Origin: Escherichia coli
GTDB taxonomy: Bacteria > Pseudomonadota > Gammaproteobacteria > Enterobacterales > Enterobacteriaceae
DNA: 64,000 bases
Assembly (NCBI RefSeq): GCF_003334765.1
Contig: NZ_QOWT01000005.1
Direction: 5' to 3' (one strand)
Below are positions 3,262-43,720 of this stretch, one piece after another. The position numbers and the translations under genes were made by a program. How positions within the stretch are numbered: position 1 is the stretch's first letter; each line of letters opens with the position of its first letter. The notes below the pieces were generated by a model. It had not been told where the DNA came from. It worked only from the letters and a program-made list of their open reading frames with translations, and searched no databases.

Positions 3262-4275
3262 ATGCGTGTACTGGGTATTGAAACTTCCTGCGATGAAACC
3301 GGCATCGCCATTTACGACGATGAAAAAGGTTTGTTAGCCAACCAATTGTATAGTCAGGTGAAATTGCACGCTGACTACGGCGGCGTCGTGCCTGAACTGG
3401 CCTCCCGCGATCATGTGCGTAAAACCGTACCGTTGATCCAGGCGGCGCTAAAGGAGTCTGGTTTAACGGCAAAAGACATTGATGCTGTGGCCTATACCGC
3501 AGGCCCTGGATTAGTCGGCGCGCTACTGGTTGGCGCGACCGTGGGGCGTTCTCTGGCGTTTGCCTGGGACGTTCCGGCGATCCCTGTACACCATATGGAA
3601 GGGCATCTGTTAGCGCCGATGCTGGAAGATAACCCGCCGGAATTTCCGTTTGTTGCGCTGCTTGTTTCCGGCGGTCATACGCAGTTAATCAGCGTGACTG
3701 GCATTGGTCAGTACGAGCTGCTCGGCGAGTCTATCGATGATGCCGCCGGGGAAGCGTTTGATAAAACCGCGAAGCTGCTGGGGCTGGATTATCCTGGCGG
3801 GCCGTTACTGTCGAAAATGGCGGCTCAGGGTACTGCCGGGCGCTTTGTCTTCCCGCGTCCGATGACCGACCGTCCGGGGCTGGATTTCAGCTTCTCCGGC
3901 CTGAAAACCTTCGCGGCAAATACCATTCGTGACAACGGCACCGACGACCAGACGCGTGCTGATATCGCCCGCGCCTTTGAAGATGCGGTGGTCGATACGC
4001 TGATGATTAAGTGCAAGCGGGCGCTGGATCAGACGGGCTTTAAGCGACTGGTCATGGCGGGCGGCGTGAGTGCTAACCGTACGTTACGGGCGAAGCTGGC
4101 TGAAATGATGAAAAAACGCCGCGGCGAAGTGTTCTACGCGCGTCCGGAATTTTGTACTGATAACGGCGCGATGATCGCCTATGCCGGAATGGTGCGGTTT
4201 AAAGCAGGCGCGACGGCGGATCTCGGCGTTAGCGTGCGTCCGCGCTGGCCGCTGGCGGAGTTACCGGCTGCGTAA
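3262..4275 (+). CDS. tsaD: tRNA N6-adenosine threonylcarbamoyltransferase (Kae1/YgjD family)
   Basis: 337-aa [23 protein letters not shown]... with HxxH metal motif ([11 protein letters not shown]); divergent from rpsU. Confidence 0.94.
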
Positions 4276-4317: not shown

Positions 4318-5781
4318 TTAAAGCAACACCACGGGCATCCACAGTAAGCCGGTAATCACCAGCAATACGAGGAATATCAGCCCAAAAATCGCCCCCAGTC
4401 GCCAGTAATCCGCCGTTGGCAGATAACCACTGCCGTAGTAAATCGGACTGGGGCCGGTGGCGTATGGTGTAAGAATGCTCCCCAGACCAATTGCCGCACC
4501 AACCATCAGGCAGAACACCGGCAGCGGGATTTCCGGCATCGCCAGCGCAGCGGCAATCATCATCGGTGCGAGAGCGGAGGTATACGCCGTGGCGCTGGCG
4601 AAAAAGTAGCGCAGTAGATAAAACACCACAATCAACGCCACCATCACCATCGTTGGCGAATAACCGCTTAAGCTGCCTGCTAACAGTTTGCCAAACCAGC
4701 TAATAAAACCGGTGTTGTTGAGTCCGGTGGCGAGGGTGATAAGCGAGGCCAGCCAGAAGAAAACGTTCCACGCCGCTTTATTACTGACAATGTCGTCCCA
4801 ACTGATAATGCGCAGAAGCAGCATCAGTGCCACCACGCTGTAACCGACCATCGCGGCATCGATATAATCACCGCCGAAAATCCACAGCACCAGCGCGCCT
4901 ACCATCAGCCCCAGCATCCGTTTTTCACGCGAACAGAGCGGGCCCATTGCCTGCAGTTCCGTCTCTGCCCAGCGCGGCACCTGATCGCCAGACTTCAGTA
5001 CCGGCGGGTACAGCACGTAAGCCAGCCAGGGAACCAGCAGAACCAGTAAAATGCTGAGCGGCAACATCCCGAGGAACCAGTCGCCCCAACTCAGCGTGGC
5101 GTGAGATGCGCTTTTCATCAGTCCAATTAACAGCAAGTTTGGTGCCATCGCCGTCAAGAAAATGGCGCTGGTCACGCAGTCGGCAACAATCCCCATCCAC
5201 ATGATGTACGAGCCAATGCTGCGCGAACTGCTGTCGTTTGGTTGTGATTGATAGAGCGGTGGCAGGTTACGGATGATGGGATAGATAATCCCCGCACCAC
5301 GCGCCGAGTTGGACGGTGTTACAGGTGCGAGGATCAGCTCGGAGAACATCACCGCATAGCCGAGAAACAGCGTGCGATGTCCCATCTTTTTCACCAGAAT
5401 CAGCGCAATGCGGCGTCCAAGCCCGGTTTTTTCATAGCCTGTGCCAAACATAAAGGCGGCGAAAATCAGCCAGATAACCGAATTAGAAAAACCGGAAACG
5501 GCCCACGAGAGGGATTTTGCAGTGAATTTAAAGCCTGGCTGAGCGAGCTGCTCCGGGCTGAACAGCAGCCAGGGAGAGAGTATGGCGATGATGGATATAC
5601 CCACCATCGCCACCACGGCACCCGGCACGGGTTCGAGGATCAGTCCAACGATCACGCCAGTAAAAACGGCAAAGTAGAGCCAGGTATGGTTCTCCAGCCC
5701 TGCGGGAACCGGAAGTAGAGCAATAATGGCGATGACCGCCAGCGGCGCAAGATATCGCCACCATTCAGTGGAAGGTTTCAT
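4318..5781 (-). CDS. ttdT: L-tartrate/succinate antiporter (DASS/SLC13-type transporter)
   Basis: 487-aa polytopic membrane ORF immediately downstream of ttdAB on the same strand. Confidence 0.88.
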   Translation of the reverse strand: MKPSTEWWRYLAPLAVIAIIALLPVPAGLENHTWLYFAVFTGVIVGLILEPVPGAVVAMVGISIIAILSPWLLFSPEQLAQPGFKFTAKSLSWAVSGFSNSVIWLIFAAFMFGTGYEKTGLGRRIALILVKKMGHRTLFLGYAVMFSELILAPVTPSNSARGAGIIYPIIRNLPPLYQSQPNDSSSRSIGSYIMWMGIVADCVTSAIFLTAMAPNLLLIGLMKSASHATLSWGDWFLGMLPLSILLVLLVPWLAYVLYPPVLKSGDQVPRWAETELQAMGPLCSREKRMLGLMVGALVLWIFGGDYIDAAMVGYSVVALMLLLRIISWDDIVSNKAAWNVFFWLASLITLATGLNNTGFISWFGKLLAGSLSGYSPTMVMVALIVVFYLLRYFFASATAYTSALAPMMIAAALAMPEIPLPVFCLMVGAAIGLGSILTPYATGPSPIYYGSGYLPTADYWRLGAIFGLIFLVLLVITGLLWMPVVLL

Positions 5782-34354: not shown

Positions 34355-34558
34355 TTGCATTCCTTGTGGTGAAGCAGTATTTAGCGCGATCAAACTGTAA
34401 AATTATTGCGGATTCTAGCAGAAGCCGCTACCGCAAAAGGTTGGCGTTACGTGCCATAGGGCGTTAATGTGCCTCAATTTAACACATGACTGCTCAAACG
34501 GCAGTCAAACGTCGCTGAAATTCACATTTAATTCACTATTAGTGCCAGGACATTAACA
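34355..34558. promoter_or_regulatory. Divergent tolC / nudF promoter region
   Basis: 204-bp intergenic region between the tolC and nudF start codons. Published tolC promoters and MarA/SoxS/Rob and response-regulator sites lie upstream of tolC, but I did not localise them by sequence. Confidence 0.4.
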
Positions 34559-37069: not shown

Positions 37070-38965
<1,896 letters not shown>

Positions 38966-39012: not shown

Positions 39013-39327
39013 TTAAATCCCTGGCTGCAGAATACGGATATTCATCTCCAGCACGTCGCCTTTTACGGCTTCGCTGTACGCCTTCATGTGCGGGGTTTGC
39101 AGATGCGCTTCAAGGTGCGCGATGCTTTCCCACTGCTCAATCATCACGATAGAATCCGGTGCCATAGACTGGAAACTCACGCCAGCAGCGCAATCCACCA
39201 TTGGCGCATAGCCGTGGCAACCTTCTTCTTTCAGTACGGTTGGAACGATTTTAGCAAACTGATCCAATACCGCCTGACGGTGATGTTGACCAGGACGAGT
39301 ACGGATTTCTGCGATTACGGTAAGCAT
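39013..39327 (-). CDS. ygiN: Quinol monooxygenase (ABM domain)
   Basis: 104-aa ORF MLTVIAEIRTRPGQHHRQAVLDQFAKIVPTVLKEEGCHGY... Confidence 0.9.
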   Translation of the reverse strand: MLTVIAEIRTRPGQHHRQAVLDQFAKIVPTVLKEEGCHGYAPMVDCAAGVSFQSMAPDSIVMIEQWESIAHLEAHLQTPHMKAYSEAVKGDVLEMNIRILQPGI

Positions 39328-39357: not shown

Positions 39358-39939
39358 TTAACCAAAAATTTCCACAAGATGCTTGCGATATTCTTCAGTA
39401 TAGCGGGGAACATCAGGCATTTTTATCACGTCATTAGCGATAAATGTCGGCAGCGGTTCCATACCGAGGAATTGGTTTGCTTTATGGAACGGCAGATACA
39501 CACCGTCAACGCCAACGCCGTGGAAGAACTGATCTTTTTCGGTGAAGGCTTCCATTGGTGCGTTCCAGGTCAGAGAAAGCATATATTTTTTGCCCTGTAC
39601 CAGGCCGCCGGAACCGTATTTTTTTGACGGATCTTTGCGGGTACGACCATCGCTGGCATACAGCGTCCCGTGACCTTCGGTGAATACATCATCAATGTAT
39701 TTTTTCACTGTCCACGGCGCGCCCATCCACCAGCCTGGCATCTGCCAGATCACCACATCAGCCCAGAGAAAGTTTTGTACTTCCGCTTTGACATCGTAGT
39801 CGCTGTCGGCGCGAACGATGCGAACATCATGCCCGAGGTCGCGCAGTGTGCCATCCGCGACTTCGGTCAGGGTGTCGTTCAGTTGACCATTGGAGTGGGC
39901 GAATTTTTTCGCGCCGTTGATAATCAGGATGTTGCTCAT
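39358..39939 (-). CDS. mdaB: NADPH:quinone oxidoreductase MdaB (flavodoxin-like fold)
   Basis: 193-aa ORF MSNILIINGAKKFAHSNGQLNDTL... Confidence 0.9.
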   Translation of the reverse strand: MSNILIINGAKKFAHSNGQLNDTLTEVADGTLRDLGHDVRIVRADSDYDVKAEVQNFLWADVVIWQMPGWWMGAPWTVKKYIDDVFTEGHGTLYASDGRTRKDPSKKYGSGGLVQGKKYMLSLTWNAPMEAFTEKDQFFHGVGVDGVYLPFHKANQFLGMEPLPTFIANDVIKMPDVPRYTEEYRKHLVEIFG

Positions 39940-40257
39940 TTTTTAACCTCAAAGTGAGACGTTTGCCGACTATAGTACGTCACAGAGCGGTACGGTGAAA
40001 TTAGCAAAATGTGCAAAGTCTTTTGCGAATTTAGCAAAAGTCTGATCTAGCTCTGACTCACCGATGCAGGATAAATATTTTCTGAAAATGACAATACTGA
40101 TAGCCATTCCTCATAATTCTTACTCGCACCGGAATAATTTACACGTTTGGTTCGGTTTTTTTGGGGATTGAAAATATGGCTTTGAATAAGTAAAAGATGA
40201 AAGTATCAACGTGTCATGTTGATAATTATAAATGGATTTTTATGAGCGTACTGATAT

Positions 40258-40590
40258 ATGTTAAAGCAGAAAATTAAAACAATATTTGAAGCATTGCTAT
40301 ATATAATGCTTACTTATTGGTTAATAGATTCTTTTTTTGCTTTCAATAAGTATGACTGGATGCTTGAGTCGGGAGGAAATATTTGCAGTATACCTTCCGT
40401 TTCAGGCGAAGATCGTATATTGCAAGCAATGATTGCAGCATTTTTTCTTCTTACGCCACTTATTATTCTTATCTTAAGAAAACTCTTTATGCGGGAAATG
40501 TTCGAGTTTTGGGTATATGTATTCTCGCTCGGTATTTGTCTGGTTTGTGGTTGGTGGCTTTTTTGGGGACGGTTTATATTTTGCTATTAG
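40258..40590 (+). CDS. ygiZ: Small inner-membrane protein YgiZ
   Basis: 110-aa ORF, three or four hydrophobic helices, very AT-rich codon usage. Confidence 0.72.
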   Translation: MLKQKIKTIFEALLYIMLTYWLIDSFFAFNKYDWMLESGGNICSIPSVSGEDRILQAMIAAFFLLTPLIILILRKLFMREMFEFWVYVFSLGICLVCGWWLFWGRFIFCY

Positions 40591-40635
40591 TAAAATCTAT
40601 GAGAGTCGTTTTAACGGCTCTCATAGACAGAGAAG

Positions 40636-42641: not shown

Positions 42642-42792
42642 TTTTTCATCCCTGCGATAACCGTATTTGCTGCCAGTAAACCGTGTTGTAACGCGCTCTG
42701 TACAGCACTAAATTTTATTTTTTTCCCTTAAGAAGTTGTTAAGGACTATCTTGTTAAATGCTCGGAAACAGACATTAAAGGGAGTAATAAAC

Positions 42793-43237: not shown

Positions 43238-43720
43238 ATGACAAACCTGACACTGGATGTAAACATTATCGATTTCCCATCAATACCTGTGGCGATGTTG
43301 CCGCACCGCTGTAGCCCTGAATTGCTCAACTACAGCGTGGCGAAATTTATCATGTGGCGTAAAGAAACGGGGCTTTCTCCTGTTAACCAAAGCCAGACTT
43401 TTGGCGTCGCCTGGGACGACCCTGCCACCACCGCACCGGAAGCGTTTCGCTTTGATATCTGCGGCAGCGTTAGCGAACCGATTCCCGATAATCGTTATGG
43501 TGTGAGCAATGGTGAACTTACCGGTGGACGTTATGCCGTGGCCCGCCACGTTGGCGAGCTGGACGATATTTCACACACGGTATGGGGCATCATTCGCCAC
43601 TGGCTGCCTGCAAGCGGCGAGAAAATGCGTAAAGCACCGATTCTGTTTCACTACACCAATCTTGCCGAAGGGGTGACAGAGCAGCGACTGGAAACGGATG
43701 TTTATGTGCCGTTGGCGTGA
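43238..43720 (+). CDS. ygiV: GyrI-like small-molecule-binding domain protein
   Basis: 160-aa ORF MTNLTLDVNIIDFPSIPVAMLPHR... Confidence 0.82.
   Translation: MTNLTLDVNIIDFPSIPVAMLPHRCSPELLNYSVAKFIMWRKETGLSPVNQSQTFGVAWDDPATTAPEAFRFDICGSVSEPIPDNRYGVSNGELTGGRYAVARHVGELDDISHTVWGIIRHWLPASGEKMRKAPILFHYTNLAEGVTEQRLETDVYVPLA

Follow-up and report, generated by a model that had tools for sequence, protein, structure and literature searches.

A predicted LysR-type operator with a superimposed marbox-like site in the mdaB-ygiN promoter of Escherichia coli

The spacer upstream of mdaB, in a 64,000-nucleotide stretch of Escherichia coli DNA (contig NZ_QOWT01000005.1; called the window below), carries two copies of the 9-mer TTAGCAAAA, which an earlier note made from the sequence alone had proposed as a regulator site for the mdaB-ygiN pair or for the divergent gene ygiZ. 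We consider it likely that these repeats are pieces of a LysR-type operator in the mdaB-ygiN promoter, with YafC, the counterpart of CrgA of Neisseria, as the predicted regulator, and that the proximal half of the operator is also marbox-like, resembling the sites of MarA, SoxS and Rob. We see in it an ordinary promoter-operator region and no new class of element; it is best grouped as an enterobacterial representative of the LysR operators of the CrgA/YafC type, with a marbox superimposed. The features of the region are listed with their coordinates in Table 1.

Both copies of TTAGCAAAA are exact matches on the + strand, at 40001-40009 and 40031-40039 with a spacing of 30 bp, and they lie where the earlier note had placed them, upstream of mdaB and 62-100 bp from its ATG at 39939 (- strand). 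Extended copies, GAAATTAGCAAAA and GAATTTAGCAAAA, are identical at 12 of 13 positions. The sense strand of mdaB reads AGAC TTTTGCTAA ATTC GCAAAAG AC TTTGCAC A TTTTGCTAA TTTCACC. As a pair of 9-mers the repeats are not beyond chance. There are two copies in the window against 0.99 expected, at least two were found in 26 of 100 shuffles, and dinucleotide shuffles of the 318-bp spacer contained an exact repeat of at least 9 nt in 24% of cases anywhere and in 6.3% within 60 bp. The extended 12/13 repeat is mildly unusual by the same shuffles (3.1% anywhere, 0.8% within 60 bp). The repeat pair is real and, taken alone, weakly non-random; its significance comes from conservation.

We assessed conservation in a gap-free alignment of the sequences in front of mdaB from 80 Enterobacteriaceae loci (MdaB 86-100% identical in protein), which with E. 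coli represent 81 species. The conserved unit in this alignment is a dyad, ATTATTGC-N7-GCAAAAG (CTTTTGC-N7-GCAAAAG in E. coli, 40040..40020), and not the 30-bp direct repeat. The arm ATTATTGC (ACTTTTGC in E. coli) is 85-100% conserved and the next 7 nt are unconserved, so that fixed arms surround a free spacer; GCAAAAGACTTTGCACATTTTGC followed by ATTT is 93-100% conserved. An invariant ACTTTGCACATTTTGC follows the dyad, then a weak -35, and then a -10 at a fixed offset of 49 nt. Because TGC-N7-GCA is a T-N11-A sequence, the dyad has the form that is characteristic of LysR operators.

The expectation that relatives would share the 30-bp direct repeat was not borne out. Outside Escherichia the distal copy is kept only as a TTGC arm, and its TAA falls in the free 7-nt spacer; one E. 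coli-labelled genome (L005) carries TTTTGCAAT at the distal repeat. Judged from the alignment, the two copies of TTAGCAAAA are TTTTGC half-sites of a predicted recognition-binding site (RBS) and a predicted activation-binding site (ABS), together with three flanking bases that agree by chance in Escherichia. The imperfect palindrome TGCAAAG-TC-TTTTGCG that had been described between the repeats is present at 40012-40027, but it is not a unit; it is the junction of the right arm of the dyad with the next site. The view that this is a regulator-binding region of the mdaB-ygiN promoter is supported, but the evidence does not favour two direct repeats at a distance of three helical turns as its functional unit.

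The dyad is maintained in different gene neighborhoods. Shimwellia, Tenebrionibacter and 'Enterobacteriaceae bacterium 4M9' (MdaB 80-83% identity) have parC or another gene upstream of mdaB, not qseC. These lineages retain ATTGC-N7-GCAAAAG(T/A)nTTT with the identical offset to the -10, 49 nt when measured from the G of GCAAAAG, but their GCAC...GCTAA marbox has decayed. Because the dyad is kept with other upstream genes where the marbox has decayed, we take it to be the oldest element and to belong to mdaB. Of the 94 loci examined, 86 have the dyad at the position upstream of mdaB; the enterobacterial mdaB loci all do, save four that have a one-base arm variant. The exact pattern is also missing from the Acinetobacter-type mdaB loci, which have no dyad, and from the yafC locus, in which the copies have GCAAAAA at their ends. 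In the window, the mdaB copy is the only exact one. Additional TTGC-N7-GCAAAAG matches were found on the minus strand downstream of mdaB-ygiN, at inconsistent positions, in several Citrobacter/Enterobacter loci (L020, L025, L029, L034, L042, L059, L068); these are probably chance matches in coding sequence.

The proximal copy of TTAGCAAAA falls in a quasi-dyad, the predicted ABS, that lies between the RBS and the predicted core promoter. Taking the conserved -10 and the conserved CA of the predicted transcription start site (TSS) as reference, the dyad would be centred at about -65 and the quasi-dyad at about -44, a distance of 21 bp. All lineages have the identical offset between dyad and -10, as does dkgB, and the dkgB promoters have a TGCA element at an offset similar to that of the ABS. 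Primer extension for the mdaB start failed in Salmonella (PMC2653508).

The same dyad recurs at yafC and dkgB. Allowing up to one mismatch, the 4.5-kb yafC locus holds two copies of TTTTGC-N7-GCAAAA where 0.02 would be expected; none of 200 shuffles reached two. In E. coli (L094), one copy, TTTTGC-AACAGGA-GCAAAA, directly abuts the ATG of yafC, which by its placement is a typical autoregulatory position for a LysR-type transcriptional regulator (LTTR). The other, ATTATTGC-CAGAATC-GCAAAA, is in the dkgB promoter and has the geometry of the mdaB copy, with a CATAAT that begins 49 nt past the G. Both the yafC and the dkgB copies are conserved in Dickeya (Pectobacteriaceae), with different spacers and the same offset. 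This distribution suggests a YafC regulon comprising yafC, dkgB and mdaB-ygiN.

The predicted assignment to YafC draws in part on a characterised system in Neisseria. In N. meningitidis, the LysR-type autorepressor CrgA activates the divergent gene mdaB (Sainsbury et al. 2009, PMC2724274). In DNase experiments its footprint covers 63 bp of the crgA-mdaB spacer and takes in two sites of 30 bp, each with a T-N11-A (PMC2724274, citing Ieva et al. 2005 and Deghmane et al.), and E. coli YafC has been named as a close homologue of CrgA, with 59% identity (PMC2724274). We compared the CrgA footprint with the enterobacterial sequences. Its reverse complement reads GATTATTTC-ATTTGAC-GCAAAAGTG...TTTTTGCACTTTT, and the enterobacterial consensus is GATTATTGC-N7-GCAAAAGACTTTGCACATTTT. 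CrgA site 2, read as GATTATTTC-N7-GCAAAAG, equals the consensus at 15 of 18 specified positions. TTTGCAC is common to CrgA site 1 and the enterobacterial ABS, and is one helical turn further on in Neisseria. YafC aligns over its full length with the CrgA structure (PDB 3HHG, E = 2.5e-113) and has the identical recognition helix, ANSAVSR. The yafC gene is present in 5,420 of 5,426 E. coli genomes, and YafC is 84-90% identical across enterics and Dickeya. ChIP-exo data for YafC reportedly exist, from work by Gao in 2018, and the link between YafC and mdaB may already be present in high-throughput data.

One locus (L091) has a LysR-family gene divergent from mdaB. The 145-bp spacer between the two genes holds GATTATTGC-TGTATGA-GCAAAAGAGTTTGTGCA at the same offset as in the other enterobacterial loci. 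With 507 bits for NF040888, where the cut-off is 470, the LysR-family protein qualifies as a YafC equivalog, and it shares 75% identity with YafC of E. coli. There is no dyad in the region upstream of the aldo-keto reductase (AKR) gene in this locus. Regulator and target are divergent neighbors in L091 and in Neisseria, and not in E. coli; this arrangement is typical of the family, not obligatory.

The E. coli region has the same target gene as the Neisseria system, the quinone reductase gene mdaB, a regulator of the same family with an identical recognition helix, and an operator of two adjacent T-N11-A sites whose arms nearly match (GATTATT(G/T)C-N7-GCAAAAG, 15/18), with TTTGCAC in the second site. 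It differs in that the operator serves only mdaB, ygiN is co-transcribed, a marbox lies over the proximal site, and binding by YafC is predicted. It also resembles the generic RBS/ABS promoters of LysR regulators such as CbnR, BenM and OxyR (summarised in PMC2724274), with a T-N11-A dyad that the conserved -10 would place near -65, a weaker site about 21 bp downstream that abuts the predicted -35, and a site in autoregulatory position at the regulator gene. Unlike generic LysR systems, regulator and target are at separate chromosomal loci, and LTTRs of the CrgA cluster may be octameric, not tetrameric. Four observations weigh against assigning the operator to YafC and against its placement. 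In E. coli, yafC is between yafD and dkgB and is unlinked from mdaB, unlike the classic divergent arrangement of LTTRs. The Neisseria sites are one helical turn (about 10 bp) further apart than the enteric ones. The Salmonella yafC locus (L095) has no dyad at the start codon. Finally, no mapped mdaB TSS was found, and the positions of -65 and -44 rest on the conserved -10.

A second layer of control may be superimposed on the ABS. The comparison with MarA/SoxS/Rob boxes recommended in the earlier note proved apt for the proximal copy. On the mdaB strand, its TTTTGCTAA is the RE2 half of a good marbox, the 15-mer core GCACATTTTGCTAAT (40014..40000, - strand); the site has two mismatches to AYNGCACNNWNNRYYAAAY. 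The degenerate marbox consensus had 21 matches against 17 expected, a chance level that is uninformative alone, and it was therefore replaced by a position weight matrix (PWM) built from 33 MarA sites determined by chromatin immunoprecipitation and sequencing (ChIP-seq; Sharma et al., PMC5684230). With this matrix the proximal marbox scored 13.7 bits and ranked fourth among about 128,000 positions of the window. This is above the median leave-one-out score of the true sites and above the score of the validated tolC marbox in the same window (GCACGTAACGCCAAC, 13.1 bits, 34440-34454, - strand). The marbox overlaps the predicted -35 by 2-3 bp. With the choice of +1, the centre of the 20-mer moves between -41.5 and -43.5, and 22 nt separate the 15-mer from the -10. 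The class II soxbox of micF is centred at -41.5 (PMC9638938; class definitions in PMC10268841). The top-scoring PWM site of the window, GCAATTAATGCAAAA (15.6 bits, 25713-25727, - strand), is inside a 320-aa open reading frame (ORF) and is probably not a promoter element.

An activation site overlapping a class II-like marbox is consistent with the place of mdaB in the mar/sox/ram regulons, which such an overlap would explain. In the literature, mdaB is a MarA-activated member of the mar regulon, belongs to the SoxS response and is RamA-dependent in Salmonella; the YneJ/PtrR paper merely repeats the activation by MarA. Like class II promoters such as micF (PMC9638938, PMC10268841, PMC5684230), mdaB has a forward GCAC...GCTAA box over a predicted, sub-optimal -35, a PWM score like those of the better-scoring half of true MarA ChIP sites, and reported inducibility through mar, sox and ram. 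Its -35 matches at 4 of 6 positions, better than is typical for these promoters. Unlike other class II marboxes, the box shares its place with a predicted LTTR activation site, and next to it on the upstream side is an invariant dyad, which marboxes do not need.

Besides the chance-level count of consensus matches, several observations count against the marbox layer. The box is about 1-2 bp further from the -10 than in class II sites of the micF type. In Klebsiella and Enterobacter, GCTCAT is present instead, with a score of 8.0 bits. GCAC is conserved in Neisseria too, where it is part of a CrgA site. There was no mdaB peak in the published tables of MarA ChIP-seq in enterotoxigenic E. coli (ETEC) or of MarA/SoxS/Rob/RamA ChIP-seq in Salmonella; the tables without mdaB also miss zwf, fumC, nfo, ybjC, inaA and nfsB. 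A calibration of spacing from the Salmonella supplement was not used, as its text disagrees with the paper's own table.

It seems unlikely that MarA, SoxS and Rob sites alone account for the region, with the class II marbox (40014..40000) joined by a second marbox made from the dyad (GC-N7-GCAAAA in a 15-mer frame, 21 bp upstream, a zwf-like position) and with no LysR factor. The score of the proximal site and the literature on the mar, sox and ram regulons agree with such an arrangement, and the 21-bp spacing resembles a combination of class II and class I positions. Read forward, the distal unit had a median score of 9.7 bits across orthologues, compared to 5.2 ± 4.4 with random spacers, and it outscored the proximal site in Klebsiella and Enterobacter. 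However, the spacer effect was marginal once composition was controlled (P = 0.045), and position 3 of the marbox, which is A in 27 of 33 true sites, is A in 6 of 64 distinct dyad spacers. The dyad persists where the proximal marbox has decayed, and it recurs at yafC, at dkgB and in the CrgA footprint of Neisseria; the lack of a published ChIP-seq peak at mdaB points in the same direction. We regard it as quite improbable that the sites are targets of the neighboring Rob-like regulator (STM3175/YgiV family), which combines an AraC DNA-binding domain (DBD) with a GyrI-like domain. This would explain a cascade from PreA through STM3175 to mdaB: PreA induces STM3175 about 600-fold and mdaB 32-fold (PMC2653508), the DNA targets of STM3175 are unknown (PMC10414762), and the boxes have a marbox-like geometry. 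A 289-aa AraC + GyrI-like gene, with a homologue of known structure (PDB 7R3W), lies between parC and ygiW in Klebsiella. Nonetheless, E. coli keeps only a 160-aa GyrI-like domain and S. diarizonae lacks the gene, yet the element is intact in both. It is also conserved in lineages without this gene cluster beside mdaB, and the recognition helices of the protein differ from those of MarA and Rob.

Two further explanations appear very improbable. One is a regulator that binds two direct repeats spaced by 30 bp, such as the neighboring response regulator QseB/PreA. The genes qseBC adjoin mdaB in most Enterobacteriaceae, the 12/13 repeat is mildly non-random, and overexpression of PreA raises Salmonella mdaB 7- to 32-fold, which the authors suggest is due to direct binding (PMC2653508). 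Against this, the distal repeat has its TAA in the unconserved spacer, which confines the direct repeat to Escherichia, and no PmrA/QseB-type box (YTTAAK-N5-YTTAAK, up to 2 mismatches) was found in 39940-40060. Sites of the OmpR family repeat at 10-11 bp, not 30. In addition, the element is conserved where qseBC are not adjacent, and the PreA effect could be read-through or indirect. The other, to which we give hardly any credence, is that the dyad acts as an RNA hairpin, a weak intrinsic terminator or attenuator between qseC and mdaB. In most species qseC ends 10-20 nt upstream, and co-transcription of preB and mdaB was undetected (PMC2653508). In E. coli the stem has 7 bp (-6.8 kcal/mol), with T-rich sequence after it, and the two innermost spacer pairs covary slightly (0.072 against 0.052; 3 of 500 shuffles). 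The median stability is only -3.4 kcal/mol, however, the central pair is a conserved A.A mismatch in 70 of 76 distinct sequences, and the arms never covary. A terminator scan made no call and Rfam gave no credible hit. The dyad is also retained where the upstream gene (parC or yafC) is divergent and there is nothing to terminate, and it is found in the dkgB promoters. To our knowledge, the motifs of PurR, CRP, FNR, SlyA, Fis, IHF, NtrC/sigma-54 and OxyR do not fit in spacing or sequence.

On the reading that we prefer, a LysR-type operator for YafC, the regulator would bind the high-affinity dyad TTTTGC-N7-GCAAAA (T-N11-A) at about -65 (RBS, 40040..40020) and, more weakly, the quasi-dyad CTTTGC-N7-GCTAAT at about -44 (ABS, 40018..40000), beside the weak -35. 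An effector-dependent change at the ABS would recruit RNA polymerase to the promoter TTCACC/TACTAT, as in other LysR systems. Activation is the predicted direction of regulation, and the effector may be a quinone or an electrophile-related signal. In the core Enterobacteriaceae, where the ABS also reads as a forward, class II-like marbox, occupancy by MarA, SoxS, Rob or RamA would probably provide a second route of activation.

A broader proposal, which we put forward as possible but tentative, is that YafC is an enterobacterial regulator of quinone and carbonyl stress with a compact regulon of mdaB-ygiN, dkgB and yafC. At mdaB, the ABS would have been overwritten by a class II marbox, such that an LTTR oligomer and monomeric MarA, SoxS or Rob share 20 bp and cooperate or compete. 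The operator would have stayed with mdaB as the regulator gene separated from it and as cassettes (qseBC-ygiW-rob-like, ygiZ, hcp) were inserted just outside.

For YafC, a regulator still known by a y-gene name, the analysis provides a target motif, ATTATTGC-N7-GCAAAAG, 49 nt upstream of a -10, as a concrete testable prediction. The predicted regulon is a small one for detoxification, with the quinone reductase MdaB, the quinol monooxygenase YgiN and the aldo-keto reductase DkgB, and it connects E. coli to the studied CrgA-mdaB system of Neisseria. Induction of mdaB by redox-cycling drugs, usually credited to MarA/SoxS alone, may run partly through YafC. There is also a caution for repeat-based site finding, in that the visible direct repeat is a lineage-specific by-product of a conserved dyad.

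Table 1. Features of the mdaB upstream region and associated elements. Positions are those of the window unless a locus is given; columns refer to the enterobacterial alignment.
Feature	Position	Strand	Basis
Dyad CTTTTGC-TAAATTC-GCAAAAG, predicted LysR-type (YafC, CrgA family) RBS, centred about -65; holds distal repeat 40031-40039 (+)	40020..40040	-	conservation, geometry, synteny, CrgA similarity
Quasi-dyad CTTTGC-ACATTTT-GCTAAT, predicted ABS, centred about -44, 21 bp downstream of RBS centre; holds proximal repeat 40001-40009 (+)	40000..40018	-	columns 36-50 93-100% conserved
Marbox-like 20-mer TTTGCACATTTTGCTAATTT, candidate class II MarA/SoxS/Rob(/RamA) site over the ABS, forward, overlaps -35	39998..40017	-	PWM score
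Predicted -35 hexamer TTCACC (4/6), 16-nt spacer to -10	39994..39999	-	inferred from conserved TTYACC, columns 55-60
Predicted -10 hexamer TACTAT	39972..39977	-	TAnnAT in all species; T, A, A, T 93-100% conserved (columns 77-82)
Predicted transcription start, conserved CA at 39965/39964	39964..39966	-	C 93%, A 100% conserved, 7-8 nt past -10
mdaB, NADPH:quinone oxidoreductase, first gene of the regulated operon	39358..39939	-	ORF and annotation
ygiN, quinol monooxygenase (ABM domain), co-transcribed with mdaB	39013..39327	-	ORF, annotation, Salmonella RT-PCR
ygiZ insertion (own promoter and coding sequence 40258-40590); marks the upstream boundary of the element, no part of it	40044..40635	+	O157:H7 homology ends at 40043
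Dyads outside the window, one abutting the start codon of yafC and one in the promoter of dkgB (aldo-keto reductase), in E. coli and Dickeya	L094:1782-1800, 3604-3622; L096:2484-2498, 4348-4362		motif match

The genes around the element are, in order, parE (37073-38965, + strand), ygiN, mdaB, ygiZ, and then qseC and qseB (- strand). The identities of mdaB, ygiN, ygiZ and qseC were confirmed by annotation in 5,426 complete E. coli genomes. Co-transcription of mdaB and ygiN was demonstrated in Salmonella by reverse transcription PCR (RT-PCR; PMC2653508). One 308-aa protein (P0005) contains an MdaB flavodoxin-like domain (PF02525) and a YgiN-type ABM domain (PF03992) in a single chain. It appears to be a natural fusion of both operon products, and fits the proposed partnership of MdaB and YgiN in a quinone redox cycle.

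We found no place for ygiZ as a target of the element, an alternative that the earlier note had left open. The ygiZ unit is a strain-variable insertion between the qseC stop and the mdaB operator, lying directly beyond the element from about 40044 onward. O157:H7 and most genera lack it, and it has its own BglJ-RcsB site, 65-68 bp upstream of a start mapped by 5'-RACE (PMC3950696). In O157:H7, about 7 nt separate the qseC stop from the AGACTTTTGC downstream of it, and the sequence becomes identical to the window again precisely at 40043. Homology to the window breaks inside or just past the repeats in about 2,100 E. coli genomes. Among the 80 other Enterobacteriaceae, 74 have the end of qseC at about 105-115 bp from mdaB, on its upstream side.

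The 89-bp block proximal to mdaB is present in all 5,426 E. coli genomes and is disrupted in only one strain. In this strain, EC05, an IS5-family element (ISKpn26) is inserted at CTAA within the proximal repeat (window 40001-40004; L002:3140-4460). The insertion leaves the predicted activation site and the marbox cut off from the predicted -35, and the mdaB gene of this strain also carries a frameshift annotation. In the uropathogenic E. coli (UPEC) strain M45, the insertion point used by ygiZ holds an orphan TssD/Hcp gene, a gene for a 236-aa protein, and ygiZ (DUF2645). The 236-aa protein had no Pfam or NCBIfam match. The arrangement suggests that ygiZ could be an orphan immunity-type gene of a type VI secretion system (T6SS).

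Two other observations concern sites outside the element. E. coli YgiV (160 aa, window 43238-43720) is the GyrI-like remnant of the Rob-like 289-aa AraC + GyrI regulator. Klebsiella and S. Typhimurium (STM3175, PDB 7R3W, albicidin-binding) carry the gene in full length, and S. enterica diarizonae lacks it (L090:2396-3265; L089). A local box of the PmrA/QseB type, CTTAAGAAGTTGTTAAG (1 mismatch), is in the qseB-ygiW spacer at 42727-42743, and a perfect YTTAAK-N5-YTTAAK match, TTTAAGTTTTACTTAAT, is at 27182-27198.

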